NCBI GenBank assembly: GCA_963704645.1
Contig: OY969926.1
Span: forward strand, 768,001-832,000
Length of the DNA: 64,000 bases
Reading direction: 5' to 3'
From: an uncultured bacterium
Lineage (GTDB): Bacteria; Patescibacteriota; JACMRA01
The notes under the pieces are model-generated. The model worked only from the letters and a program-made list of their open reading frames with translations. It had not been told where the DNA came from and made no database searches. Below are positions 5,413 through 51,593 of this stretch, piece by piece. Numbering within the stretch: position 1 is the stretch's first letter; every line of letters begins with the position of its first letter. A program made the translations under genes and the position numbers.

Positions 5413-5930
5413 TGGAAACACTTAACAAGTTAACTTCAACAACAATTTTGAATATAAAATATTTAACAAACAACACTGGAGAAATTTAAATTATTATAAA
5501 ACCTTTATAATCCTTAGCTTTCTCAAAAAAAACCTTTCAACTTCAACAAAATATTCTACCCTACAAGTGTTTAAGGAAAAAGTAGTGCAATATTTACCAA
5601 CATGGAATTAATAAGCTTTAGAATAGTAATATTCATAAAAAGTAAAAGAACTATTTCCAAGTACAATTATAAAAAAGAATAAAACAATTACGTGATACTC
5701 TAAATGGTAGTAGCAGAGGCTTCACACACTTTATTTGATTAAAAGTTATAATGCGTTTCGTGTTAATTTTAAAAAACCAGTAGTAGCAAAGTCTCTGAGT
5801 TATAAAGCTATAATTGTCATAAGTACAAATTCATTTTGTTTCTTCCATCGGTTTGGTACAATGAATTGTGAGTTTTGACATATCAATTTTTCTAAATAAT
5901 TGTAAGGCATAATCTTAATTCAACTTAAAC

Positions 5931-7637
5931 ATGCCAGATCTTTTTCAAACTACTTTGTTGCCGCAAATTTTGGTTGATGTTTCGTCTGGCGAAAATGTAA
6001 ATAAAGATAGTTTTTTAGGGTTAAGTTTGAAAGCCAAGGAACTTCTTCCACAAATAAATTGGGTTATTACACAGCGTAAATTTGAATATTTCAGCGAAAT
6101 GTTGAACCTGCAAAACCATTCTAGCGTAGCAGTAAAGCGTAAAGTTGCAGCCGGCTTGGGTATTATTGGCAGAGCCGAGGACGCAGACTTAATTAAACCT
6201 TGGCTAGAAACAGAATCTGATAGGGAAACTTGGTTAATTTTGCAAGCTAGCATTGATAACCTTTCAAGAAAAAATAGTAATTCATCGTCTGAAGTTGAAA
6301 AGCTTACCGTTTCTGAAGCGATAACTTTAGTAAAAAAAATTTTAGGGGATAAAACTTATATTATTGAAGGCGAACTAACCGAGATTAAGCCTATAAATAA
6401 TATGTTTGCTTTTGGAGTGAAAGACAAAGAGGCAAGACTGAACTGTTGGATGTTGGCTTCTGTTTCAGAGAGAAAAAATATTCCCATGAATGATGGTTTA
6501 ACAGTAAAATTGAAGGGAAAATTTAAACTATCTAAAGATTCCAGGTTGTATTTTAATGTAGAAAGCTTAGATTTAACTGGGGAAGGTGAGTTACTTAGAA
6601 ATTTGAAAATGCTGGAAAGTAAGTTGAAAGAGGAAGGTTTATTTGATGAAACAAGAAAGCGAAAAATTCCTATCCTCCCAGAAAAGATATTGCTTTTAGC
6701 TAGCAGTAATGGTGCTGCTATTCACGATTTTGTAAAAGTGTTAGGTCAAAGGCGTGGAGGAATAGAAATTTACCATTTACCAATTAAAACTCAGGGAGTT
6801 GGGGCAGAATTGAACTTGTTAAACGCTTTGAATTTAGCTAATAATTTAACAGAAAGCTTGAAAATTGACTCGATTGTAATTACCAGAGGTGGTGGTTCTA
6901 ATGATGACTTGGCTGTTTTTAATTCTGAACGTGTAGTTAGGGCGATTTATTCTTTAAATAAACCTTCAATTGTTGCAATTGGACACGAAAAAGACTTTAC
7001 TTTGTCTGAATTTGTTGCAGATTTAAGGGCTAGTACACCAAGTAATGCGGCCGAGTTAATTTCGCTAACAAGAAATGAAGTTGTTAGTAAGGCAAATTTC
7101 GTTTTGCAAGAAACTGTTAGCTTAATCCAAGCTAAAATTATAAATTATTCTGAAGTAAAAACTAGGTTATCAACCAGTATTATAAATATTATACGAAGTA
7201 ATATTAATCAATTTCAACTTGAACTTAAAAACTTTGACACTACAATTCAAACCTTGGTTAATGATGTAAAGTCTTTAAATAGTCAGCTTTATGGTTCAAT
7301 TTATGGCTTAGTACAATTGCAATTTAATTTGGCTAAAATTCAATCTGTAAATTCAGAGGAGTTTTTTGGTGTCATAAGTTTCCACATACAAAACTACAAA
7401 CAGGAAACTAAGTTTTATTTTGAGAATATTAAAAACCTGCTAACTTCAGAGATTAAAAATTCTAGATACCAAGTTAATTTATTGTTTTCTGATATTCAGC
7501 AATTTGATATAAATTTGGTTTTGGAAAAAGGGTTTGCTTTAATTAGCCAAAATGGGAATGTTATTGAAACAAAAAATGCCCTGAAAAATGGATCTGTTAC
7601 AATTCAATTTCAGGACGGTGTGGTGGAAGTGGGGTAG
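5931..7637 (+). CDS. xseA: Exodeoxyribonuclease VII large subunit with N-terminal HEAT-like extension
   Basis: LTVSE...EGEL OB fold start, EGLFD, ITRGGGS, AIGHEKD, STPSNAAE, VLEKGFA motifs. Confidence 0.92.
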   Translation: MPDLFQTTLLPQILVDVSSGENVNKDSFLGLSLKAKELLPQINWVITQRKFEYFSEMLNLQNHSSVAVKRKVAAGLGIIGRAEDADLIKPWLETESDRETWLILQASIDNLSRKNSNSSSEVEKLTVSEAITLVKKILGDKTYIIEGELTEIKPINNMFAFGVKDKEARLNCWMLASVSERKNIPMNDGLTVKLKGKFKLSKDSRLYFNVESLDLTGEGELLRNLKMLESKLKEEGLFDETRKRKIPILPEKILLLASSNGAAIHDFVKVLGQRRGGIEIYHLPIKTQGVGAELNLLNALNLANNLTESLKIDSIVITRGGGSNDDLAVFNSERVVRAIYSLNKPSIVAIGHEKDFTLSEFVADLRASTPSNAAELISLTRNEVVSKANFVLQETVSLIQAKIINYSEVKTRLSTSIINIIRSNINQFQLELKNFDTTIQTLVNDVKSLNSQLYGSIYGLVQLQFNLAKIQSVNSEEFFGVISFHIQNYKQETKFYFENIKNLLTSEIKNSRYQVNLLFSDIQQFDINLVLEKGFALISQNGNVIETKNALKNGSVTIQFQDGVVEVG

Positions 7638-37979: not shown

Positions 37980-39158
37980 TTAGATTGAGAGACTGGCTGT
38001 AACTGTGCTAAGCTTTTCAACAAATTCTTCAATCTCTTTTTGTGTTGTCATAATTCCTAAAGTTATTCTAATATTTGCCCCAGTTTCTTTTTTTCCAATT
38101 TCATTAAAAAGTGGGCTGTTATGAATTGCCCCGCTTCTACAATTGCTTCCGCTACTAACACAAATATTTTCTAAACTTAATGCTGTTAAAACTTCTTCTG
38201 TGTTTAAATTTGGTATGAAAATATTTAAATTATTTGCAGCTCTTTGTGAAAAATTATTTTCCTCATAAAACCCGTTAATTTGAATATTTGGAATTGCTTG
38301 TTTCAACTTTTTGTAAAGATAATCTCTTAAGTTTCCAACCTTTACTCGGTTTTTATCTAAATTAATTTGAGTAAGTTCCAAGGCTTGGGTGAATGTTGAA
38401 ATGCTCGCCACGTTTTCGGTTCCTGCTCTAATTCCACTTTCTTGGTGGCCACCTCGAATTTCTGATTTCAGGTTAATTTCTTTTTTATAAACCAGGCAGC
38501 CAACACCTTTTGGAGCATAAATTTTAGAGCTGCTGAAAGTTACTAAATCTACATTTTTTACTAATTCCTTTAAATCAATCCAATTTGGTGCCTGGGCTGA
38601 ATCTGATAAAATGTGTAACTTTGGTATTCCAAGTTTGGATCTTTCTAAATTTACTTCATCAGCAATTGCTTTAATTTCTTTTAACTGCTGAATTGTTCCA
38701 ATTTCGTTGTTTACACTTTGAATACAGATTAGATTAATTTCGTCAGTAATTTTTGATTGTAAGTCCTCTAGGTTAATAAAACCGTTGGAATCAACGACCA
38801 CTCTTTTTTGATTATCACCAGGAATATTTTCTAGAACGGAATCGTGTTCTAGGTTGGAGTATAAGATCTTTCCAGTTTGTGGCTCGCAAGCTTCGCCGCT
38901 ACGGGTTTTTTTGAAAGTTTGTAGTGCTAGGAAGTTCGCTTCGGTTATACTTGCAGTAAAAATTATGTTGTGGGTGTCTCTGGAAATTCCTAAAATATTG
39001 AAAAGTTTTAATCTACTTCTTTCTAGCTCCGCCTTAGCTAATTGTCCTGTTGGATGTGTAGCCGAAGGATTTCCCCAAAAGCTTTGACTTACTAAATTAT
39101 AATGCTCCATTAATTCAGGCAAAATAGGCGTTGAACCGGCGTAGTCCAGATAGATCAT
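37980..39158 (-). CDS. Cysteine desulfurase (IscS/NifS family)
   Basis: IYLDYAGSTP, GNPSATH, EHDSV, NNEIGTIQ, DSAQ, SSSKIYAPKG, RAGTEN, SSGSNC. Confidence 0.92.
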   Translation of the reverse strand: MIYLDYAGSTPILPELMEHYNLVSQSFWGNPSATHPTGQLAKAELERSRLKLFNILGISRDTHNIIFTASITEANFLALQTFKKTRSGEACEPQTGKILYSNLEHDSVLENIPGDNQKRVVVDSNGFINLEDLQSKITDEINLICIQSVNNEIGTIQQLKEIKAIADEVNLERSKLGIPKLHILSDSAQAPNWIDLKELVKNVDLVTFSSSKIYAPKGVGCLVYKKEINLKSEIRGGHQESGIRAGTENVASISTFTQALELTQINLDKNRVKVGNLRDYLYKKLKQAIPNIQINGFYEENNFSQRAANNLNIFIPNLNTEEVLTALSLENICVSSGSNCRSGAIHNSPLFNEIGKKETGANIRITLGIMTTQKEIEEFVEKLSTVTASLSI

Positions 39159-39288
39159 GTTTAAGTTATCGTGAATATTTTAGTTGGTGTAAAGGGTGGT
39201 GGAAATATAAGATTTAAGCTCATTCTAAACTGAGAAATTTGGGTAATAATTAGAACCCCACAATTTTGCAGGGCTCAAAGCTTACGAG

Positions 39289-39702
39289 TTACGGAAAAGT
39301 AATTTTTGTAATTCTCACTTCTTCACAAATTTCTGAATTCAGATTTGGCTTAAAATAAGCCATTATTAGTGGTTTAGGGAGAAGTCTAAGAAAATGATTG
39401 CCAGCTGGAGGATAAACAAGTTTTAAAGATATGAATTCAACTTGTTCTTCCAACCAACCACTTCCTCCTTCAGCAGAAAAGCTTGCGGTTCTAGTTACAA
39501 TTAGTCGCTCTAAGTCGTCTGGATCGTGTATAATTTCCAAGGTGGCAAAGACTGATTTGTTGCTTCTTTCAACTTGACCTTCAATTCCAATAGTGTATCC
39601 GCTGTATGATTTTCTAACAATTTGGTTGAAAGTCTGAAGAACATTATTCAGCATAGTACCACCTTTCAATTCAACTACTTCTGGCATGATAAAATTCTCC
39701 AT
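39289..39702 (-). CDS. Orphan hypothetical protein (start uncertain, ATG 39702 or 39687)
   Basis: C-terminal ~135 aa of the called ORF; hairpin follows near 39253-39277. Confidence 0.5.
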   Translation of the reverse strand: MENFIMPEVVELKGGTMLNNVLQTFNQIVRKSYSGYTIGIEGQVERSNKSVFATLEIIHDPDDLERLIVTRTASFSAEGGSGWLEEQVEFISLKLVYPPAGNHFLRLLPKPLIMAYFKPNLNSEICEEVRITKITFP

Positions 39703-39847
39703 CAAAATAATAATATTACCTGCTTCATTAACACACACTTTTAAGCTTTGATCAAGTTGATTTTGGAACTTCGGCAGCAAAAAAAAGACAAAAAAATGGA
39801 ACCGCAAGGGTTCCGCTACGTAATGTAAAATTATAAAAAACTTGAGA

Positions 39848-40033
39848 TTACCCAATTTTCTTACGCATTATGTATTCTGCTGCAATAAATGCTATAGCTG
39901 CAATGGCGGCTCTGATTGCTAGGTCTATAAGGGCTGGTTGGTCTAGCAAAAAACTGCCTCTTACAATTACGTTGTATAAAACTGTAAGAACAAGTGTGAT
40001 AAATGCTCCTAAAAGGTAATAAATTATGTTCAT
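39848..40033 (-). CDS. Small two-TM membrane protein
   Basis: 61 aa with two hydrophobic helices and basic tail; follows recF. Confidence 0.6.
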   Translation of the reverse strand: MNIIYYLLGAFITLVLTVLYNVIVRGSFLLDQPALIDLAIRAAIAAIAFIAAEYIMRKKIG

Positions 40034-40053
40034 AATGTTCTTAATATGGCCAA

Positions 40054-41187
40054 TTATTCAGCCTTTGTCAACTGTAAAGTACTGTAGGTTGCCAACTCAA
40101 AGTTTACAGGCCTGGTGGAAGTAGCAAAGAAAAAATCGGATTCACGTTTTACTGTGTTGAAAAATAAAAATTCTCGGGTGCTGTCTAATTCGTTAAACAA
40201 ATCGTCTAGCAACCATATCACACTTTGATTTTCAGGAAGGTTTCTTCTAACAATTTCTTTCCAATATAAAGCCAGTAAACGCATTTCACCCCTAGATAAA
40301 ATTTGGGTGGCGTTCTGGTAATTGCAAAGCCAGTTAAAATCGTCCCTATTAGCCCCGAATAAAACTTTACCTGCTCTCAGTTCTGCTTCCCACAAACTTT
40401 TGAAGTTAGTATTTCCAATAACTTTTTGTAGGAATAAGGTTTTTTCGTATTGGTTTAAACTGCTCCAGTTTTCCCAGTTAAAACGTTCGTCCATTTTCTT
40501 TAGACTTAGCTTAAAACCTTTGAAATTGGTTATCTCTAAATCAATCTGCCAGTTTTTAAAGCTAGAATTTATCCAGTTTCCAAACATGCTTTTGTGTTTA
40601 AATAGTTCGGCAAAAAAGTTGGCTCTGTAAACCCAAATGTCTAAACTTGCTTCATATAAGTCTTGATTAAGTTTATCTAAAATAATTTGGTCGGGTACTA
40701 TTCCTTCGCTTAAAAAGTTTTTAATTAACTGGGTTTTACCTTTAACCGCCCTGTCTAATTGTTCTAATAATTTGGAATATTGTTGCCCGTGAATTTCTGT
40801 TAAGCTATTATCTAAAACACCAATTTTTTGGGTTCTTGGTAAATTTAAAAAATAGTTATCTGCTGGAAGGTAAGTAATAATTTTAGGCAAAATAGTATTA
40901 TCAGGAAAGTTAATGGAAGTTACTAATCTGCCACTTGGGGCAATTTTACCAGTTACATTCCAGTTATCATCAATGCTTACTCCAAAATAATCACGTCCTT
41001 GCATTAAGTTATCTTTCCACTTACTTGCGGGCCAAGGTTTGCCAGTTAAAAGGCTATAATAAGCAGAAAGCAGGCTTGTTTTACCGCTTCCATTTTTATC
41101 GCACAATAAAAAAGAATGATTGGGTAAATAAAAATGCTGCTCTTCAAAACAACGCCAATAGTTCAAACTAATTTTTGTGACTGACAT
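40054..41187 (-). CDS. recF: DNA replication and repair protein RecF (divergent)
   Basis: NGSGKTS Walker A, GANRDD, LSRGE, LLDDLFNELD. Confidence 0.85.
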   Translation of the reverse strand: MSVTKISLNYWRCFEEQHFYLPNHSFLLCDKNGSGKTSLLSAYYSLLTGKPWPASKWKDNLMQGRDYFGVSIDDNWNVTGKIAPSGRLVTSINFPDNTILPKIITYLPADNYFLNLPRTQKIGVLDNSLTEIHGQQYSKLLEQLDRAVKGKTQLIKNFLSEGIVPDQIILDKLNQDLYEASLDIWVYRANFFAELFKHKSMFGNWINSSFKNWQIDLEITNFKGFKLSLKKMDERFNWENWSSLNQYEKTLFLQKVIGNTNFKSLWEAELRAGKVLFGANRDDFNWLCNYQNATQILSRGEMRLLALYWKEIVRRNLPENQSVIWLLDDLFNELDSTREFLFFNTVKRESDFFFATSTRPVNFELATYSTLQLTKAE

Positions 41188-41291
41188 TATTTAAGTTATG
41201 CATAAACGAGGTAAGTTTGCAAATTTTTGGGAAATGTGATTATGAAATTAGAGAACGGTAATTACTTTTAGACTAAGGATAAACAAATATA

Positions 41292-41603
41292 ATGTCTGTA
41301 AATTCTTCTAACTTGCCCGATTTAGCTGAATACCCTAACTTTAACGGTCACCAGATACCTTCTGACGTTATTGCCTTTTTGGTAGACGATGAAGGCAAGC
41401 TCATGGTTTTCAATGGTCATGGTTTGATTTTTCGTTCGAGTCATGATGCAGCATTTTATGTGAAGTCCCAACCTATAGGTATTTGTGAACATGATATACG
41501 ATTTAATGATTCGATTTCATTGAAGAAAATGTCATTTAGAAAGCTGACTCCATATATGCATCAATGTGTGCTTCTTTTTTTAGCTAATGGTATGAAGCCT
41601 TAG
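41292..41603 (+). CDS. Cassette orphan protein 1
   Basis: 103-aa ORF between repeated promoter and terminator. Confidence 0.7.
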   Translation: MSVNSSNLPDLAEYPNFNGHQIPSDVIAFLVDDEGKLMVFNGHGLIFRSSHDAAFYVKSQPIGICEHDIRFNDSISLKKMSFRKLTPYMHQCVLLFLANGMKP

Positions 41604-41807
41604 TCTGTATAGCCTCAACCATGGGGGCTATATTTTTTACCCAAAATTCTGTGCAAAGAAGGTGTAGCCTGCTAGCCAAGCTGGTAAAATGTTTTGGCCA
41701 AGCTGGGTTTTTTCTAGGTTTAGGTTGCTTAGCCTACATAATAGCTAGGTTTGCAAATTTTGGGAAAGTGTGATTGTTTCAAAAGGAACTTCATTTGGTA
41801 AAAGTTA

Positions 41808-42185
41808 ATGACCGATAGAACGATTGTGCTTTGCGACTATAATGTCACAGTTACAGAAAACTCAATTTTGTTTCTAACTGGATTGAAAAATAGTAAAATT
41901 GTCTTTGGTGAAAATGGTAAACTGTGTTTTTCTAGTCAAGCAGCTTTTTCAGAAGAATTACAGCCTAACATTTCTCAAGATTTGTGGAGTACAATTGCTC
42001 AGATTCTTGAAATATGTGACGTTTTGTCTGATCAGTTTAAAGAATTTTTTTCAAAACAGCAGGTTCTGGTGGCAAGCTTAAACGAAAGCTTAAACGAAAG
42101 CGGAGACTTGGTTGTTGAATTTGCTTCAATCAAACCTCTGTCTGAAGACGAAATGACGGCAACAATAAATATTTTTGTTCCTTAG
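41808..42185 (+). CDS. Cassette orphan protein 2, paralog of protein 3
   Basis: Shares MT.RTI, ELQPN.S, IAQI.E..D.L, LVASL.E with 42415-42777. Confidence 0.8.
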   Translation: MTDRTIVLCDYNVTVTENSILFLTGLKNSKIVFGENGKLCFSSQAAFSEELQPNISQDLWSTIAQILEICDVLSDQFKEFFSKQQVLVASLNESLNESGDLVVEFASIKPLSEDEMTATINIFVP

Positions 42186-42414
42186 TATGTAAAATAGCCT
42201 CAACTGTGGGGCTATATTTTTTACCCAAAATTCCGTACAAAGAAGGTGTATCCTGCTAGCCAGACTGGTAAAATGTTTTGGCCAAGTTGGGTTTTTTCTA
42301 GGTTCAGGTTGTTGTAAACCAATAAATTTTATTAATTAACTTGTGTGATACTCAAGTTTGCAAATTTTTGGTAAATGTGATTTAGAATAAATGAATTTAG
42401 TAGGTGGCAATTTT

Positions 42415-42777
42415 ATGACTGAAAGAACAATTAATTGTTCACAATTTTATCTAACAGTATCAAATGGCGGTCTTATATTTACTATTCCGTTTGCTAAGGA
42501 AGAAGTAAAGTTTACTGGTCAGCTATATTTTTTTGGGTCAGATGATTTTGGAAAAGAGCTTCAACCGAACGTTTCAGATCATACTAGAGGAATAATTGCT
42601 CAGATCGTTGAGCTTATTGATATTCTTTTTTCAGTAGGCTTTGAAAACTTTCCACGAAACAAAAAGTTGGTTGCAAGTTTAGATGAAGAAATGGAAAACT
42701 TGCTTATAGAATTTCCTACTAATAGAAATTTAACTGAAAATCAAATCGATCAGATTATCACTTTTATATCTCTTTGA
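42415..42777 (+). CDS. Cassette orphan protein 3, paralog of protein 2
   Basis: Start MTERTI aligns with MTDRTI of protein 2. Confidence 0.8.
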   Translation: MTERTINCSQFYLTVSNGGLIFTIPFAKEEVKFTGQLYFFGSDDFGKELQPNVSDHTRGIIAQIVELIDILFSVGFENFPRNKKLVASLDEEMENLLIEFPTNRNLTENQIDQIITFISL

Positions 42778-43017
42778 TTTTTAAATAAATATATCGGCCT
42801 TACAACCTTTTGTAGGGCTATTTTTTATCTAAAAATTTGTGCAAAAAAGGTGTAACCTGCTAGTCAGGCTGGTAAAATGTTTTGGCCAAGTTGGGGTTTT
42901 TCTAGGCTTATGTTGTTGTAATCGAATAATTTTATTAATCGAACAGTTCGTTGGATGTGAGTTTGCAAACTTTAAGAAAGTATGTTTTTCTTTAGAAGTT
43001 GAATTCAGAAAAAAGCT

Positions 43018-43356
43018 TTGACAACATCATTCCCTCAAATTGATGCAGATTTCATTGAAAATGCATCTTATTGGAACACTCTAGAACCAAATTATCATGT
43101 AGTTCCAAGAAATGCTGTAATTCTGGTGGTTTCCTCGCAAGATCATAGTAGGCTGTCTAAAATTCCAAAATGGGAGGTGGGAGGAATCATCTTGGTACAC
43201 CCCATGCTAGTATATTCTCCTCGGGCTAACTGGAAAGTAGATTTTGTTCAATACCCTGGCCCTGTACAGAGCCATATATGTTACTATAAAATTGAGTCTA
43301 ACAACCTGTGGAAAGAGGCTCTTGCTGAAGTTTATAGAGGAATTGAAGTATATTGA
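43018..43356 (+). CDS. Cassette orphan protein 4
   Basis: 112-aa ORF (TTG start) between repeated promoter and terminator. Confidence 0.65.
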   Translation: MTTSFPQIDADFIENASYWNTLEPNYHVVPRNAVILVVSSQDHSRLSKIPKWEVGGIILVHPMLVYSPRANWKVDFVQYPGPVQSHICYYKIESNNLWKEALAEVYRGIEVY

Positions 43357-43407
43357 ATATTTTTATTTGGTATAGCCTCAAACGTGGGGCTATTTTTTTT
43401 GTTAAAA

Positions 43408-44178
43408 TTATTCCAAACCTTTGGCAAAAAAGGTGTAGCCCGCCACCCATGCTGGTAAAATGTTTTGGCCAAGCTGGACTCGTTCTAATTTTAAATTGTT
43501 GTAAATTTCCTCTTCTTTTTGGCTGAATCCTCCTTCTGGGCCTGCTAGGCAGGATGTTGGTTTTGTTTGGATTGTAGAGTCTTCTGAATTATTTAATTTG
43601 TGGCTCGCAAGCTTCGCCGCTACAGGAACTACCGCCATGTCTAACGGCTTGACCCCTAAATAGGGGTGCTTTTTAACCTGGCTTTCCTCTTGAGATTTTA
43701 TTTCTTGGTGTAGCCATTTTGGTTTGTGTTCTTGTATTTTTTCTAGCCATGTTTTTTTGTCTAAGATTTCAATTTCTGGTATGAATAAGTTGTGGCTTTG
43801 TTCGCAGGAGCGTATTAGAATTTTGTTTAGTCTTTCTGTTTGGACGTTTTGTTTTGGCGAAAAACTTCCGTTGTAAATATAAATTTTTGTAACTGCTGCA
43901 ATAGGAGCTAGCTCGGCCAGTTTTTCTAAATAAAGTTTATCGGTTTGATGCTGAAAAAGTATTTTTTCTGGTGGTTTTATCTGGGTTTCAATCTCTAAAA
44001 ATTCCAATTTGTATTCACCTAATTTCTTATTTATTTCTACAATTTTAGCCTTCGCAAAACTTCCATCTAAATTGGTAAAAGTGTAAATATCACCTAATTT
44101 AGGGTGTAATGAGTGAAGGTGAGAAGAGTGAGTTTGTGAAAGTAGACCAGATTTTAGACTGGGTATATAAAGATACAT
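43408..44178 (-). CDS. rsmE: 16S rRNA m3U1498 methyltransferase RsmE (divergent, with repeat-derived insertion)
   Basis: SCEQS, GPEGGFS..E, LGQNIL SPOUT motifs. Confidence 0.85.
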   Translation of the reverse strand: MYLYIPSLKSGLLSQTHSSHLHSLHPKLGDIYTFTNLDGSFAKAKIVEINKKLGEYKLEFLEIETQIKPPEKILFQHQTDKLYLEKLAELAPIAAVTKIYIYNGSFSPKQNVQTERLNKILIRSCEQSHNLFIPEIEILDKKTWLEKIQEHKPKWLHQEIKSQEESQVKKHPYLGVKPLDMAVVPVAAKLASHKLNNSEDSTIQTKPTSCLAGPEGGFSQKEEEIYNNLKLERVQLGQNILPAWVAGYTFFAKGLE

Positions 44179-44242
44179 TGGTTATTTTTTGTGGTGGAAT
44201 GGTGGGTTTGTCAATAATCTATTTGTATGCAACCATCAATGT

Positions 44243-44863
44243 ATGAATCAAACAAAATATTTAATATTCGATTTTGATGGTGTGTTAGCAGATAGCTTTC
44301 AAGCCATTTCAGAATACGAATATAGTAAAAGTGACAATATTACACTTCAAGAAATTCAAGCTAAAATGCTTTTAAGTGATGAATCTAATCAATTCATGAA
44401 TCCAGAAATTGATCAATTAAAAATTGAATTCCGAAAAGGACTAATGACAGAAGCTGCCAATCATTTAATTAAAAAAGAAATCCCTCTGTTCTTAGATTTT
44501 TTAGAGGAAATAAATAAAATAGAAAATACTAAACTAGCCATAGTTACAAGTAATGCTAGCAAATTTGTTAGGTATGCACTAGGCGATATTCAACATAATT
44601 TTGAATATATTCTTGGTGTTGAGGATGATTATTTGAAATCTGATAAGATAAAATTTATTTGCGACAATTGGGGAGTAGATATTGGTGATATTGTTTATTT
44701 TACTGATACTCAAAGAGACGTCCACCAATTGGAAAATCATATGGATAAATCAAAAATATACGGTTGTGCTTGGGGATGGCACGGTATGGAAAGACTGATG
44801 AAGGTTCTGCCTAAAGAAAACATTCTAGAAAAATTTGAAGATATTCACAATTTGAATTTCTAG
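44243..44863 (+). CDS. HAD-superfamily hydrolase
   Basis: IFDFDGVLADS, AIVTSN, K..K, YFTDTQRD, GCAWGWHG. Confidence 0.88.
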   Translation: MNQTKYLIFDFDGVLADSFQAISEYEYSKSDNITLQEIQAKMLLSDESNQFMNPEIDQLKIEFRKGLMTEAANHLIKKEIPLFLDFLEEINKIENTKLAIVTSNASKFVRYALGDIQHNFEYILGVEDDYLKSDKIKFICDNWGVDIGDIVYFTDTQRDVHQLENHMDKSKIYGCAWGWHGMERLMKVLPKENILEKFEDIHNLNF

Positions 44864-45080
44864 CTCGGTTGTTAAATTCAGAGTTAATATGTTTAAGAGC
44901 AGGTCGTGCCTGGGAAACGTCTAAGGTGGATGTGTAACGGAGCTGTACTCTGTTCTCCATAAATTTGGGAAAAATAATGACCATTTTCGGGGTTGAGGGG
45001 ATTGTATAAACATTTGTGCTAAACTTTTAATGTAAAAACATCACATTGACATTCCCACCACCACCTGCTTCCCTAAAAAA

Positions 45081-46328
45081 GTGCAATATAAACATTTTTA
45101 CAAACTTGGTCATCAGACTGCTGTAGGTTTAGCTGAAACTCAAAGCTTAAATTTAAATGTTGGTTTTACTAGTGGTGATTGGCTTTTTTCCAATGAAAAA
45201 ATTAACTTAGAAAAAAGTGGTTCCTTGGTTTTCGCAGGGGAAATTGAAAAACTTTGGTCAGAAAATTACCGTTTAATGGAGGACGAATTTTACCCTTTGC
45301 TAGAAGAAACTATTGGTAACTTTGTAAAGCAGCATGGAACCAAATCGGCTGGACTTGTGGTTCCACACAAATGGCAGAAAAAAAGCTTAATGGTAGCTAA
45401 GAAAGCTGGGCTTAAAAAGGTAAACGTACTGGCTATTCCTACAACTCCAAATTACGGCCATTGGAAACAGGCAAAAGTTTGGTGGATGTTAGTACAAGAA
45501 AAAGGTATAATTTGGCTCGCAAGAATTGACCAAATGGCCAACCAAGAATTTTGGTCAGACTTAGATATGAAACTACCCAAAGGTGATATGGCTAGGGGAA
45601 TTATTAACATGAAATTTGCCAGAACTTTACTTAATTTTACTGAAAAGAAACTAATTTGGGATCCTTTTGCGGGGCATGGAAGAGTAATTTTAGCAGGTCT
45701 AGATTTAAAAGAAAGGTTTTACGCTTCAGATATTAACGAGGAAAAACTAAATTTGGAAATTATTGAAAACTATAATTTTGCAACTACAATGTATAATCAG
45801 GAATTTTTACGCAAAGCCAGAATTGCCCATGCTAAGCTTCATAAAGATGAGCCTTTTGATGAAAAAACTGAAACCCCAGAACTGGGCTCTTTAGAAAAAG
45901 TATTTAGATTAGACGCCAACTATATCTCTTCTATTTTAGATAAGAAAAGTTTAACTTACGAACCAGAATTGTCGGCAGAGAACTTCAAAGACATGGCCAT
46001 TGTTACTGAAGGCTATTTAGGGTTTAATTTTAAAGGAGCACCACTGCCAATACAAATGAAAACTGAGTGGGAAAGCATTGCCAAAATTTGGTCGAACTTA
46101 CTAATTGGAGCGGGGAAGTTAGGTATAGCCGAAATTATTTGCTGTGTGCCATTTTACCAAGTTGAAGGAAAGAAATTGCTTCCTCAGTTCCTATCAAATT
46201 TAGATGGGCTAGGGGGATATAAACTATTATCTTTTAACGAAAATAGCTCAAGACCAGGATTAGAATACGCCAGACCACAAGCCAATGTGGGTCATTTGGT
46301 TTTGAAGTTTGTTTTGCCAAATGTGTAG
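45081..46328 (+). CDS. Putative RNA methyltransferase (Trm11/TrmG10-like)
   Basis: GIINMKFARTLLN, IWDPFAGHGRV, SDI, IVTEGYLG. Confidence 0.7.
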   Translation: MQYKHFYKLGHQTAVGLAETQSLNLNVGFTSGDWLFSNEKINLEKSGSLVFAGEIEKLWSENYRLMEDEFYPLLEETIGNFVKQHGTKSAGLVVPHKWQKKSLMVAKKAGLKKVNVLAIPTTPNYGHWKQAKVWWMLVQEKGIIWLARIDQMANQEFWSDLDMKLPKGDMARGIINMKFARTLLNFTEKKLIWDPFAGHGRVILAGLDLKERFYASDINEEKLNLEIIENYNFATTMYNQEFLRKARIAHAKLHKDEPFDEKTETPELGSLEKVFRLDANYISSILDKKSLTYEPELSAENFKDMAIVTEGYLGFNFKGAPLPIQMKTEWESIAKIWSNLLIGAGKLGIAEIICCVPFYQVEGKKLLPQFLSNLDGLGGYKLLSFNENSSRPGLEYARPQANVGHLVLKFVLPNV

Positions 46329-49336: not shown

Positions 49337-50475
49337 TGAACAAGTCCAAACACATATGATACCAAAGGGTGGTAGATTAATAATCCTAAATCTACTATCA
49401 TATGATCATGTCTTACACTTTGGAAGATAAATTTAAAATAATTGAATACTCATTTAAGCATGGTATTAATTCTACATTAGAAGCATTATCTCTAGATTCA
49501 AATCGTAAACTTTCCAGAATAACTTTAATTAGGTGGAGGAAGAAATGGAGAAAAAGTTGTGAACTTAATTATGGAGCTGGTAACAAATACGATTTAAAGG
49601 ATAAAAGCAAAAGACCTAATAAATTTAGACAGTCAAATGTACAAGGGAGAATACTTGAGTTTATTCAACAAACTAGATTGCAATATCCTAATCTAGGTAA
49701 AGACAAACTTAAAGTATTGTTAGATGATTACTGTGCAGAACAAAATCTAAAAGAAACAAGTAAAACACTAAAAACTATTTCAATTTCAACTATCGGCAGA
49801 ATAATATCTACTTTTAAAGATCAAAGAATAATACCAGTCTACAAATACTCAAAGCAAGTCTATTTAGACGGTAGAACAGGAAGTATTAAACAAAGACTAC
49901 TAAAACCTAGGAAGCAAGTTAAAACCAGAAGAAAAGAATACCAGCCTAATAGCCCAGGAGATCTAATTCAATTAGACGCAATAACCTTTTATCTTAATGG
50001 AGTAAAAAGATATTTAATCTGTGCTGTAGATCTAGTTAGTAGATATTCTTTCGTATATGCTTACAAAACATTAAGTAGTAATAGTACAAAAGACTTCTTC
50101 TTAAGAATGCAAGATGTATTCCCTTACCAGATTAAAAGAGTTCAGACAGACAATGGACAAGAAAATCATAAGAACTTTGATGAACTGTTAAAATTTAAAG
50201 ATATTACTCATTTCTGGAACTATCCTAAATCTCCTAAAATGAATGCTTACATAGAAAGATTCAATAGAAGTGTGGAAGAAGAGTTTGCTAATTATAATCT
50301 ATGGATACTAAGAGATGATATACAAGCTTTTAATCTAAAATTAATCATGTACCTAGACTTCTACAATAACCAAAGACCACATCTGGGTTTAAAAAGAGAT
50401 ATTGGACAATTTATACCACCAATGAAATACCTACAACAATACCATCCTAAGTATCATATGTAGTGAACGGGTACA
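49337..50475 (+). mobile_element. IS481-family insertion sequence
   Basis: Imperfect ~25-bp terminal inverted repeats sharing acatatgatac; TGTAG direct repeat at 49332-49336 and 50476-50480. Confidence 0.8.
49402..50463 (+). CDS. IS481-family DDE transposase (integrase core)
   Basis: PGDLIQLD, AVDLVSR, VQTDNG.E, PKMNAYIERFNR, YNNQRPHLGL. Confidence 0.92.
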   Translation: MIMSYTLEDKFKIIEYSFKHGINSTLEALSLDSNRKLSRITLIRWRKKWRKSCELNYGAGNKYDLKDKSKRPNKFRQSNVQGRILEFIQQTRLQYPNLGKDKLKVLLDDYCAEQNLKETSKTLKTISISTIGRIISTFKDQRIIPVYKYSKQVYLDGRTGSIKQRLLKPRKQVKTRRKEYQPNSPGDLIQLDAITFYLNGVKRYLICAVDLVSRYSFVYAYKTLSSNSTKDFFLRMQDVFPYQIKRVQTDNGQENHKNFDELLKFKDITHFWNYPKSPKMNAYIERFNRSVEEEFANYNLWILRDDIQAFNLKLIMYLDFYNNQRPHLGLKRDIGQFIPPMKYLQQYHPKYHM

Positions 50476-50494
50476 TGTAGACATAATAAATAAT

Positions 50495-50554
50495 TCTTGC
50501 AAAAACAGTTTTTATATGCATAACTAAAATTAGTTTCTGTTTTAGTACAGGAAA
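50495..50554 (+). promoter_or_regulatory. 60-bp promoter block, identical to 51173-51232
   Basis: tcttgcaaaaacagtttttatatgcataactaaaattagtttctgttttagtacaggaaa; TTGCAA -35-like box. Confidence 0.8.
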
Positions 50555-50579
50555 TGTTAAATTTAAAAAGTGAGGTTTT

Positions 50580-51038
50580 ATGAGTACAGATTTGGAATAT
50601 TACAGACCTGAAAATCTAGAAGAAGTTCTTACTTCTTACAGTGTAGAAGAACTCCAATACATCGCTTCAAACCGTCCAGATATTATATTGGGGTGGCAAG
50701 AATTGTACAGACAAAATCTTTTCTCACACATTGTAGATGCTGGGTTTTCAGACAATCTGGGGCGGGTCTTGGTTAGCCTTATTGGTCTAGATCAGCGAGT
50801 CCGAAATGTTTTCCCCAAACCATGCTGTAATATTTGGGGATCTTATGAATTCCTTGCTGATCAGCTAAATCAGTGTGGTATAAACAGTAGAGCGGCTTGG
50901 TTCCTTTTTGCCAATCCTCATCTCTTGGATATGAACATAATTCAATTGCATTCTGAGCTTTTGCATAATCGCGAATTTGAAGAGGTTGCAGAGAGCATTC
51001 TTGGGCGTAAAGTTTTGTACGCAGAGGATCTGTTGTAA
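50580..51038 (+). CDS. Orphan cassette protein
   Basis: 152-aa ORF, GAGG RBS-like motif, followed by ccctcc/ggaggg terminator. Confidence 0.7.
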   Translation: MSTDLEYYRPENLEEVLTSYSVEELQYIASNRPDIILGWQELYRQNLFSHIVDAGFSDNLGRVLVSLIGLDQRVRNVFPKPCCNIWGSYEFLADQLNQCGINSRAAWFLFANPHLLDMNIIQLHSELLHNREFEEVAESILGRKVLYAEDLL

Positions 51039-51131: not shown

Positions 51132-51257
51132 GAGTGAAAAACTAACAAAGTTTAACTAGACTAAAGATTAACTCTTGCAAAAACAGTTTTTATATGCATA
51201 ACTAAAATTAGTTTCTGTTTTAGTACAGGAAAGTTTAATTTAAAAAAAGGTAAAGCT

Positions 51258-51593
51258 TTGACTATTAAAATCTACGGTTTGCTAGCAGTTGAACAACAAC
51301 TTAGCCTTTTAGATTTGGGAGTTCCAAACTTCCCCTTCCCTCCGTACCTAGCAAGAATAACTGTTCTCCCAGAGAATATACGATATTCTTCACCTTGGTT
51401 TGACAAATGTACTAGAAATGGTGACGGAAGCCTTCCAATTTTCACAATTGTAAACCTTAATAGGTACACGGCTGACTGGTGTGGAAATTATGTTATAGCT
51501 ACGGTAGAATATAGACAAATTACTCCGTATATGGAAGGTCCAGGTTTTATATCAAGAGCGATTGCTGATCCAAATCTTTCACCTTGGACATAA
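51258..51593 (+). CDS. Orphan cassette protein
   Basis: 111-aa ORF (TTG start) between the duplicated promoter and terminator. Confidence 0.65.
   Translation: MTIKIYGLLAVEQQLSLLDLGVPNFPFPPYLARITVLPENIRYSSPWFDKCTRNGDGSLPIFTIVNLNRYTADWCGNYVIATVEYRQITPYMEGPGFISRAIADPNLSPWT

Follow-up and report, generated by a model that had tools for sequence, protein, structure and literature searches.

The interval between recF and rsmE in a 64,000-nt window of contig OY969926.1 (positions 768,001 to 832,000; assembly GCA_963704645.1), from an uncultured bacterium of the Patescibacteriota (JACMRA01), holds a tandem array of four small gene cassettes, the first three each followed by a decayed copy of the 3′ end of rsmE. 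The same interval carries a single cassette in other lineages of the genus, the gene within it differs from one lineage to the next, and one cassette of the array is shared, recently and with sharp edges, with another species. We interpret the locus, with a probability of roughly 55%, as a single-gene slot whose content is exchanged by recombination, in the manner of the minimal mobile elements (MMEs) of Neisseria, and which would have grown in this genome by an Rhs-like displacement of old gene ends. Coordinates below are those of the window; the genome holding the array (1.27 Mb) is labeled G000, and G001, L032/L033, and L034 are the other lineages of the genus.

A polymorphic single-gene slot in related lineages

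A metagenome scan with RsmE alone returned nothing, and a scan with an RsmE alignment gave four loci. Within the genus, a single small gene on the opposite strand lies between recF and rsmE, framed by the same conserved sequence box and the same type of terminator that frame the units of the array. This gene is a different one in each of the three single-slot relatives: an ORF1 homolog in G001 (recF-ORF1-rsmE), an unrelated gene of 89 aa in L032/L033, and in L034 a gene of family B, like open reading frames (ORFs) 2 and 3 of the array. Two slot gene families of the relatives (the ORF1 type and family B) thus recur in G000. The slot lies between recF and rsmE in G000, G001, and L032/L033; in L034 it is bordered by rsmE, and the contig ends before recF. 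A shared order of the four ORFs in all relatives, which a preliminary description of this DNA had named as evidence that would speak against gene accretion, was not what this comparison returned.

The exchange is sharply confined. G001 and L033 are close (recF: 0.27 synonymous substitutions per site, dS, and 0.012 nonsynonymous, dN), with near-identical flanks, whereas from the end of the box to the start of the terminator they are 36% identical (139/383 columns). In all 6 units compared, the cassette has sharp edges at two constant positions, one following TGTGATT and the other preceding the hairpin.

In three other genera, rsmE is directly followed by recF (3 of 18 other-genus loci: L015, L017, and L026), with gaps of ~44–90 nt, and the remaining other-genus loci have a different gene 3′ of rsmE within the ~1.3 kb available. 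Judged from this gene order, a gene-free rsmE-recF junction appears to be the ancestral state. No extra copies of the rsmE end were found in the other genomes among the 26 of the family that were searched; three rsmE-end matches in G005 were rejected as extra copies, as they are consecutive pieces of one gene region. From the single slot of the relatives and this lack of extra rsmE ends it follows that the array is a polymorphic single-gene slot in stacked form.

The position upstream of rsmE is also variable (window 44189–44863 compared with L029 6657–7259 and L033 5148–5750), holding a HAD-family hydrolase in G000 and a 200-aa Y1/IS200-like protein in G001 and L033. The latter protein matches Pfam Y1_Tnp at E 5e-4, below the cut-off, and has three paralogs elsewhere in G000.

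Exchange of the ORF1 cassette and a mosaic rsmE end

ORF1 is 91% identical at the nucleotide level between G000 and G001 (dS 0.187, dN 0.07), although the two genomes are only 68–77% identical over 9 kb of synteny and the genes flanking the slot are far more diverged (dS 2.15 for recF and 1.37 for rsmE). The same discrepancy is seen in the proteins, with 86% amino acid identity for ORF1 and 69% for RecF. The ORF1 5′ leader (41242–41291) has no differences between the two genomes. The proportion of synonymous differences in recF codons 1–30 is already 0.79, which places one end of the shared tract in the stretch from the recF start to the box; the other end is at the terminator, with identity dropping at the terminator loop and the rsmE tail. 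The ~16 nonsynonymous against 10 synonymous differences in ORF1 point to recency rather than to constraint at the nucleotide level, and the sharp bounds of the tract imply that the exchanged unit is essentially the transcribed segment. These sequence comparisons indicate that the ORF1 cassette moved horizontally between species.

The resident rsmE gene of G000 has a mosaic 3′ end. Over alignment columns 720–765 (~45–60 nt) it is 89–91% identical to L033 and 71–80% to G001, and G001 and L033 are 76–82% identical to each other there, against mostly 84–100% for the rest of rsmE outside a variable linker. The end of the G001 gene is the variant that is present in the relics. The switch is immediately preceded by a ~45-nt block that encodes CLAGPEGGFSQKEEE and is 97–100% identical in G000, G001, and L033 and 82–89% in L034, and the relics start directly after this block. 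It is the obvious candidate for the crossover zone on the rsmE side.

Organization of the array

The interval consists of four plus-strand units of 534–607 nt (unit lengths 534, 607, and 605 nt), each composed of a 27–34-nt box (GTTTGCAAA...TGTGATT), a 30–55-nt leader, one small ORF, and a strong hairpin terminator (Table 1). After units 1–3 follow ~95 nt that encode, on the minus strand, the last ~30 codons of RsmE, and then a spacer of 19–41 nt leading to the next box. A 115-nt direct repeat recurs at 41631–41745, 42215–42329, 42819–42933, and 43402–43516, with a spacing of 584, 604, and 583 nt and identities to copy 2 of 83, 100, 85, and 64% for copies 1–4. In a search of the whole genome the three other copies were recovered at E 1.4e-42, 4.7e-35, and 1.2e-17, and no match with E < 0.01 occurred outside the locus. 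The units, boxes, and terminators listed in the preliminary description are all present at the positions it gave.

The box motif GTTTGCAAA starts at 41215, 41749, 42356, and 42961, as had been described, and belongs to a 34-nt family with 74–100% identity. Its earlier designation as a conserved promoter motif stands for conservation and placement; a consensus scan did not score it as a sigma-70 promoter, and its role as a promoter is presumed from its position. The palindromic TTGCAA of the box could serve as a −35 element on both strands, shared with the divergent recF. A pattern search of the genome found neither box nor unit hairpin outside the locus (the hairpin pattern gave three matches, all at the locus). 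The four best terminator-like hairpins of 41000–43700 lie directly 3′ of the four ORFs, and the scan of this region gave 12 sites compared with 1.9 ± 1.4 in shuffled sequences.

Searches for a known element at the locus were negative. A tRNA-type target was rejected, as no tRNA gene was found there; Rfam models gave a single match on 40900–43700, at 17.9 bits against a threshold of 100. A blastn search of plasmids with the whole array gave no match, and two scans of viral contigs found nothing.

Table 1. Features of the recF-rsmE interval in window coordinates.
Feature	Position	Strand	Basis or remark
recF, left flank of the slot	40054..41187	−	TIGR00611 E 3.4e-32; 69% aa identity to G001 recF
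Box 1, with palindrome TTTGCAAA and TGTGATT; presumed promoter	41208..41241	+	Repeat family; locus-unique in genome
ORF1, 103 aa, orphan family A	41292..41603	+	
Terminator hairpin 1	41607..41633	+	Hairpin scan
Relic 1 of rsmE 3′ end (..NLNLEKTQLGQNILPAWLAGYTFFAQNFG), frame intact	41640..41729	−	
Spacer 1, 19 nt, source not detected	41730..41748		
Box 2	41742..41775	+	
ORF2, 125 aa, family B	41808..42185	+	
Terminator hairpin 2	42194..42215	+	Hairpin scan
Relic 2 of rsmE 3′ end (YNNLNLEKTQLGQNILPVWLAGYTFFVRNFG, then stop)	42221..42315	−	
Spacer 2, 40 nt, homologous to spacer 3	42316..42355		
Box 3	42349..42382	+	
ORF3, family B, 120 aa from the Met aligned with the ORF2 start (128 aa from 42391)	42415..42777	+	
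Terminator hairpin 3, stem sequence differs	42796..42819	+	Hairpin scan
Relic 3 of rsmE 3′ end, most decayed, TGA replaces Trp	42828..42919	−	
Spacer 3, 41 nt	42920..42960		
Box 4, most divergent copy (74%)	42954..42987	+	
ORF4, 112 aa, TTG start, orphan family D	43018..43356	+	
Terminator hairpin 4, tail-to-tail with rsmE and shared	43372..43393	+	Hairpin scan
Resident rsmE, intact, right flank; last ~95 nt are the copy matched by the relics	43408..44178	−	

Relics of the rsmE end and their spacers

Both genes flanking the array are intact: RecF (TIGR00611, E 3e-32) on the left and an RsmE-family SPOUT methyltransferase on the right (PF04452, E 5e-17; TIGR00046 above cut-off). The relics translate on the minus strand to the RsmE C-terminus as had been quoted, with a TGA in place of a Trp codon in relic 3. 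An alternative genetic code that would rescue this codon was rejected, as the flanking genes read through under table 11 with Trp as TGG. The earlier remark that the relics resemble each other more than the resident end is confirmed, at 85–89% nucleotide identity between relic pairs and 74–79% to the resident rsmE, with 7–11 differences per 78 nt among the relics. Decay increases from relic 1 to relic 3 (1, 3, and 6 changes for relics 1, 2, and 3, in a hand count against the relic consensus). Spacers 2 and 3 are homologous (z 4.05, 0/1000 shuffles); spacer 1 is unrelated to them (z ~0 against spacer 2 and −1.5 against spacer 3) and to recF-proximal DNA (+1.05).

Variation of a separate kind occurs within rsmE itself, where an internal linker is hypervariable in the genus (window ~43560–43700; L029 ~5880–6020). 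The linker inserts of G001 and L033 are 38–46% identical, with 84–100% identity around them; the G001 insert holds a 79-nt repeat that is also present in the neighboring gene, and the G000 gene has a separate insertion of ~21 aa. A hairpin element, ACCCCT-N4-7-AGGGGT, lies in frame within this linker (window 43652–43667) and also in the rsmE of G001 (L029 5886–5937). It has 15 copies in G000 (these include window 56436 and 13 others) compared with ~0.07 expected, is usually paired with a second short hairpin, and recalls palindromic elements that insert into coding DNA.

Cassette proteins

ORF2 and ORF3 are distant paralogs, as first described, with 33% amino acid identity (E 1e-19), 54% nucleotide identity, and dS 1.26. 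The reported lack of visible similarity for ORF1 and ORF4 agrees with our pairwise comparison, which yielded no alignment for either. Family B comprises ORF2, ORF3, the L034 gene (P0006), and a further protein, P0007; these were the four real members among 1.84e9 representatives, two more matches to repetitive proteins being judged spurious, and in a search of 27 genomes of the order the family B profile had no match outside G000. Among 5.8e9 proteins, ORF4 found only itself and ORF1 a single relative. The 89-aa gene of L032/L033 (O89) has a 96% identical variant in which the frame is kept.

Profile-profile comparisons between the four families gave probabilities of at most 1.1%. N-terminal shuffle tests yielded weak but colinear signals for ORF1-ORF2 (z 2.7, 13/500) and ORF1-O89 (z 2.6, 7/500), with the remaining inter-family pairs at chance, which offers a hint of N-terminal similarity among the families. 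All cassette families are orphans, and homology of all four ORFs, the other finding that had been named as adverse to gene accretion, is not borne out, since only ORF2 and ORF3 are demonstrably related within the array.

None of the cassette proteins matched Pfam, NCBIfam, PHROGs, or PADLOC below E 0.05, and SKA2 (E 0.08) and a phenol-soluble modulin model (E 0.18) were rejected as identities of the ORFs, being far below cut-off. Sequence searches of the PDB gave one match at E 0.33 and otherwise none, and a tblastn search of phages with ORF2 gave no match. ESM Atlas models of two stored homologs had confidence (pLDDT) values of 0.38–0.39 and scores at chance level. Compositional foreignness was also rejected, as the ORFs have 31–39% GC compared with 34% for the window. 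Our guess is that the payloads are strain-specific accessory proteins under fast turnover, possibly related to conflict. Since they have so few relatives among billions of proteins, the slot would be a defined site for following how orphan genes are born, tried out, and turned over.

Recombination and uptake genes

No ORF for a recombinase or integrase occurs in 39000–45500 (ORF list and Pfam), and no genes of integrases, relaxases, integrative and conjugative elements (ICEs), or integrative and mobilizable elements (IMEs) were found in the interval or its flanks. The sole PF00589 match of the genome, an Xer-like gene beside pepA, lies at 883.7–884.4 kb, 72 kb from the locus and near a GC-skew extremum, and the sole (large) serine recombinase is at 73.7 kb. 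The genome also has three Y1/IS200-like paralogs, with Pfam matches below cut-off. A dif site would be expected at the cumulative GC-skew extremum, which is ~80 kb away from the locus. Relic plus spacer sequences showed no attC-like fold as single strands (z +0.84 to +0.98 in four of six strands; −1.18 and −2.17 for unit 3), and the strong hairpins at the locus are ordinary terminators only. The core of the preliminary description, a locus of gene accretion and replacement that is tied to the 3′ end of rsmE and has no recombinase gene within or adjacent to it, is upheld by these searches as well as by the differences among relatives and the exchange of ORF1. ComEC and DprA are encoded in G000 and may be counted as means for DNA uptake.

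Proposed origin of the array and alternative explanations

We suggest that the rsmE-recF junction of this genus would act as a slot in which a fixed box and a fixed terminator frame one small orphan gene on the opposite strand, and that related lineages would exchange this gene. Incoming DNA may recombine in short conserved islands: toward recF this would be the box, and toward rsmE the terminator together with the conserved 3′ end of that gene. The four-unit array would have arisen from addition of units in place of their replacement: an incoming unit with its own copy of the rsmE 3′ end could recombine with the resident end, either by a single crossover of a looped-out unit or by unequal crossover, such that the end of rsmE always stays intact and the earlier end is shifted toward recF, together with its cassette, as a silent relic. 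Any unit might later be overwritten by recombination through its box and relic. Tandem duplication followed by ORF replacement is a live sub-variant of this scheme.

Several results weigh against the scheme. The comparison covers only four lineages of the genus. The order of relic decay is the reverse of that expected from simple serial addition beside rsmE, and a later overwriting of unit 1 is therefore needed; a tree of relic ends and rsmE alleles, built on 78 columns, had no supported branch. No source could be detected for the spacers that link each relic to the following box, and the dissimilarity of spacer 1 to spacers 2 and 3 implies that at least two junction-forming events may have struck rsmE within ~5 nt, which plain homologous recombination does not predict. 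The islands available for the ORF1 exchange are also short, at most ~54 nt on the left (44/54 identical, longest perfect run 12) and ~12 nt before the terminator loop on the right, and RecA-type recombination usually needs longer identity. Crossover zones this short pose a testable question about the recombination mechanism.

These same features would be consistent with tiny non-autonomous site-specific cassettes, for which a recombinase acting in trans, or an HUH-type enzyme, would recognize the box and/or the hairpin together with a fixed point ~95 nt before the rsmE stop, each unit bringing a replacement gene end as do integrative islands at the 3′ ends of tRNA genes or fda. Sharp cassette edges at the same two places in every unit compared, two unrelated junction types reaching rsmE within ~5 nt, and an inter-species ORF1 tract that ends within very short identities all fit such an explanation, and the Xer-like recombinase, the large serine recombinase, and the Y1/IS200-like paralogs could act in trans; decayed elements are moreover known to accrete in tandem at the 3′ ends of genes (PMC7563491). 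However, no recombinase gene lies within the locus, box and hairpin are confined to it in the genome, relic and spacer lack an attC-like fold, and the locus is well removed from the GC-skew turning point at which dif would be expected. The edges also coincide with the presumed promoter and the terminator, the islands where conservation should be highest and where crossovers would naturally fall, and we therefore consider site-specific insertion unlikely, if worth keeping in mind. Somewhat less likely again, in our view, is a dedicated socket bounded by box and hairpin as its two ends, specific in sequence or structure and run by an enzyme encoded elsewhere, which would swap and stack exactly one transcription unit at a time behind the end of an essential gene, with a fresh 3′ end each time. 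If true, the locus would represent a new class of cassette platform, free of an integrase, that serves a reduced genome as a nursery for orphan genes restricted to a lineage.

Tandem duplication in situ of one promoter-ORF-terminator-rsmE-end unit, with the four ORFs forming one very fast-evolving family and no import, would account for the regular unit length, the paralogy of ORF2 and ORF3, the homology of spacers 2 and 3, and the weak colinear N-terminal similarity of ORF1 to ORF2 and O89. We regard it as improbable, since ORF1 is not fast-evolving (86% identical to its G001 homolog where RecF is 69% identical), ORF2 and ORF3 have reached dS 1.26 while the noncoding relics beside them differ by only 10–15%, the profile comparisons between families gave next to no probability of kinship, and a family-B gene and an ORF1 gene each fill the single slot of another lineage. 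The very fast divergence after duplication that had been proposed as one origin of the array thus finds no support. More improbable still is an assembly artefact in which slot alleles of co-occurring strains were strung into one contig. Although the source is evidently a metagenome-type assembly and the slot is truly polymorphic among relatives, the units are joined by unique spacers that are present in no single-slot relative, the relics have decayed individually (one with an in-frame TGA), the repeats are 10–26% diverged and hence too unlike to confuse an assembler, and no single-slot flank sequence joins a relic back to a box.

Comparison with known systems

A slot exchanged by homologous recombination would most resemble an MME, in which different whole-gene cassettes lie between two conserved genes and their incorporation is attributed to homologous recombination after DNA uptake (PMC3082526). 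The likeness lies in the two conserved flanking genes, recF and rsmE, the different whole-gene cassettes, and the lack of mobility genes of their own. Homologous recombination after uptake as the route of incorporation would be favored by the mosaic rsmE end, the presence of ComEC and DprA, and the recent sharing of one cassette, whereas the very short crossover zones speak against it. The islands here differ in being a short box and terminator that frame exactly the transcribed part, with orphans of 89–128 aa as payloads, and the stacking into a tandem array with gene-end relics falls outside the MME definition as worded there (PMC3082526).

Stacking of this kind recalls the displacement model for Rhs genes of Jackson et al. 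(2009), in which a circle that has looped out is reintegrated through one homologous crossover, pushing the old end downstream (PMC2935791). As at Rhs and MafB loci, an intact gene has its own dissociated 3′ fragments (here the three rsmE relics) lined up behind it, each with accompanying genes. However, the anchor is a housekeeping rRNA methyltransferase rather than a polymorphic toxin; the displaced ends in Rhs arrays encode toxin tips that vary and come with cognate immunity genes, whereas the ends here are conserved and the variable payload is a separate gene on the opposite strand with its own box and terminator. Searches of the cassette proteins against Pfam, NCBIfam, PHROGs, and PADLOC gave no toxin or immunity signature.

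If units were inserted site-specifically, they would resemble cis-mobilizable elements (CIMEs) or Xer-dependent modules. CIMEs and microCIMEs accrete in tandem at gene 3′ ends, with repeats of the target gene end flanking elements that lack recombination genes (PMC7563491). The array shares with them small elements between direct repeats of a target gene 3′ end and growth at one site. In contrast, CIMEs derive from ICEs or IMEs and use the integrase of a tandem partner; there is no integrase, ICE, or IME at the locus, and the units measure ~0.6 kb.

The array also resembles an integron in that small, unrelated genes follow one another singly, with a repeated sequence between them. Integrons have an adjacent IntI tyrosine recombinase with attI, attC sites that fold as single strands, and mostly promoterless cassettes read from a common promoter. 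Taken strictly, the label integron-like of the preliminary description is not supported, as there is no IntI at the locus and no attC-like folding, and each unit has its own box and terminator in place of one common promoter. Elements of the IS200/IS605 type carry subterminal hairpins at both ends, occur in many copies, and are mobilized by a Y1 transposase; the genome has three Y1-like paralogs, yet the unit hairpin is confined to the locus, where the three pattern matches lie. In Xer-dependent modules (dif/pdif), 28-nt XerC/XerD sites flank each module.

Under the preferred reading of an exchanged slot, the locus would illustrate, at single-gene resolution, how novel genes can be traded and hoarded by a genome of 1.27 Mb in which mobile-element genes are very few. 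Box and terminator would act as a plug-in frame, allowing whole transcription units to cross between species whose flanks are saturated with substitutions, and each addition would duplicate the end of an essential gene rather than break it. The Rhs-type displacement architecture would thereby extend from polymorphic toxins to a housekeeping gene, and the minimal-mobile-element idea beyond Neisseria to an uncultured lineage.

Other repeats in the window and genome

A 92-nt direct repeat, 92% identical between its copies (window 50478–50569 and 51157–51246), directly follows an rve-type transposase ORF (49402–50463) and lies just upstream of two dissimilar plus-strand ORFs, 50580–51038 (152 aa) and 51258–51593 (111 aa), which gave no mutual BLASTP alignment and no Pfam match. 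The repeat has the look of a promoter or leader (TTGCAA...TATGCATAACT) that was duplicated in front of different genes, a theme also seen at the main locus. Outside the window, G000 has tandem 1,218-nt units, 98–99% identical, which run up to the end of its single contig (C1:1265033-1272640). Other perfect tandem repeats occur at 974751–977021 and 1170749–1171132, and the tandem repeats of this genome may bear on the closure of the contig.

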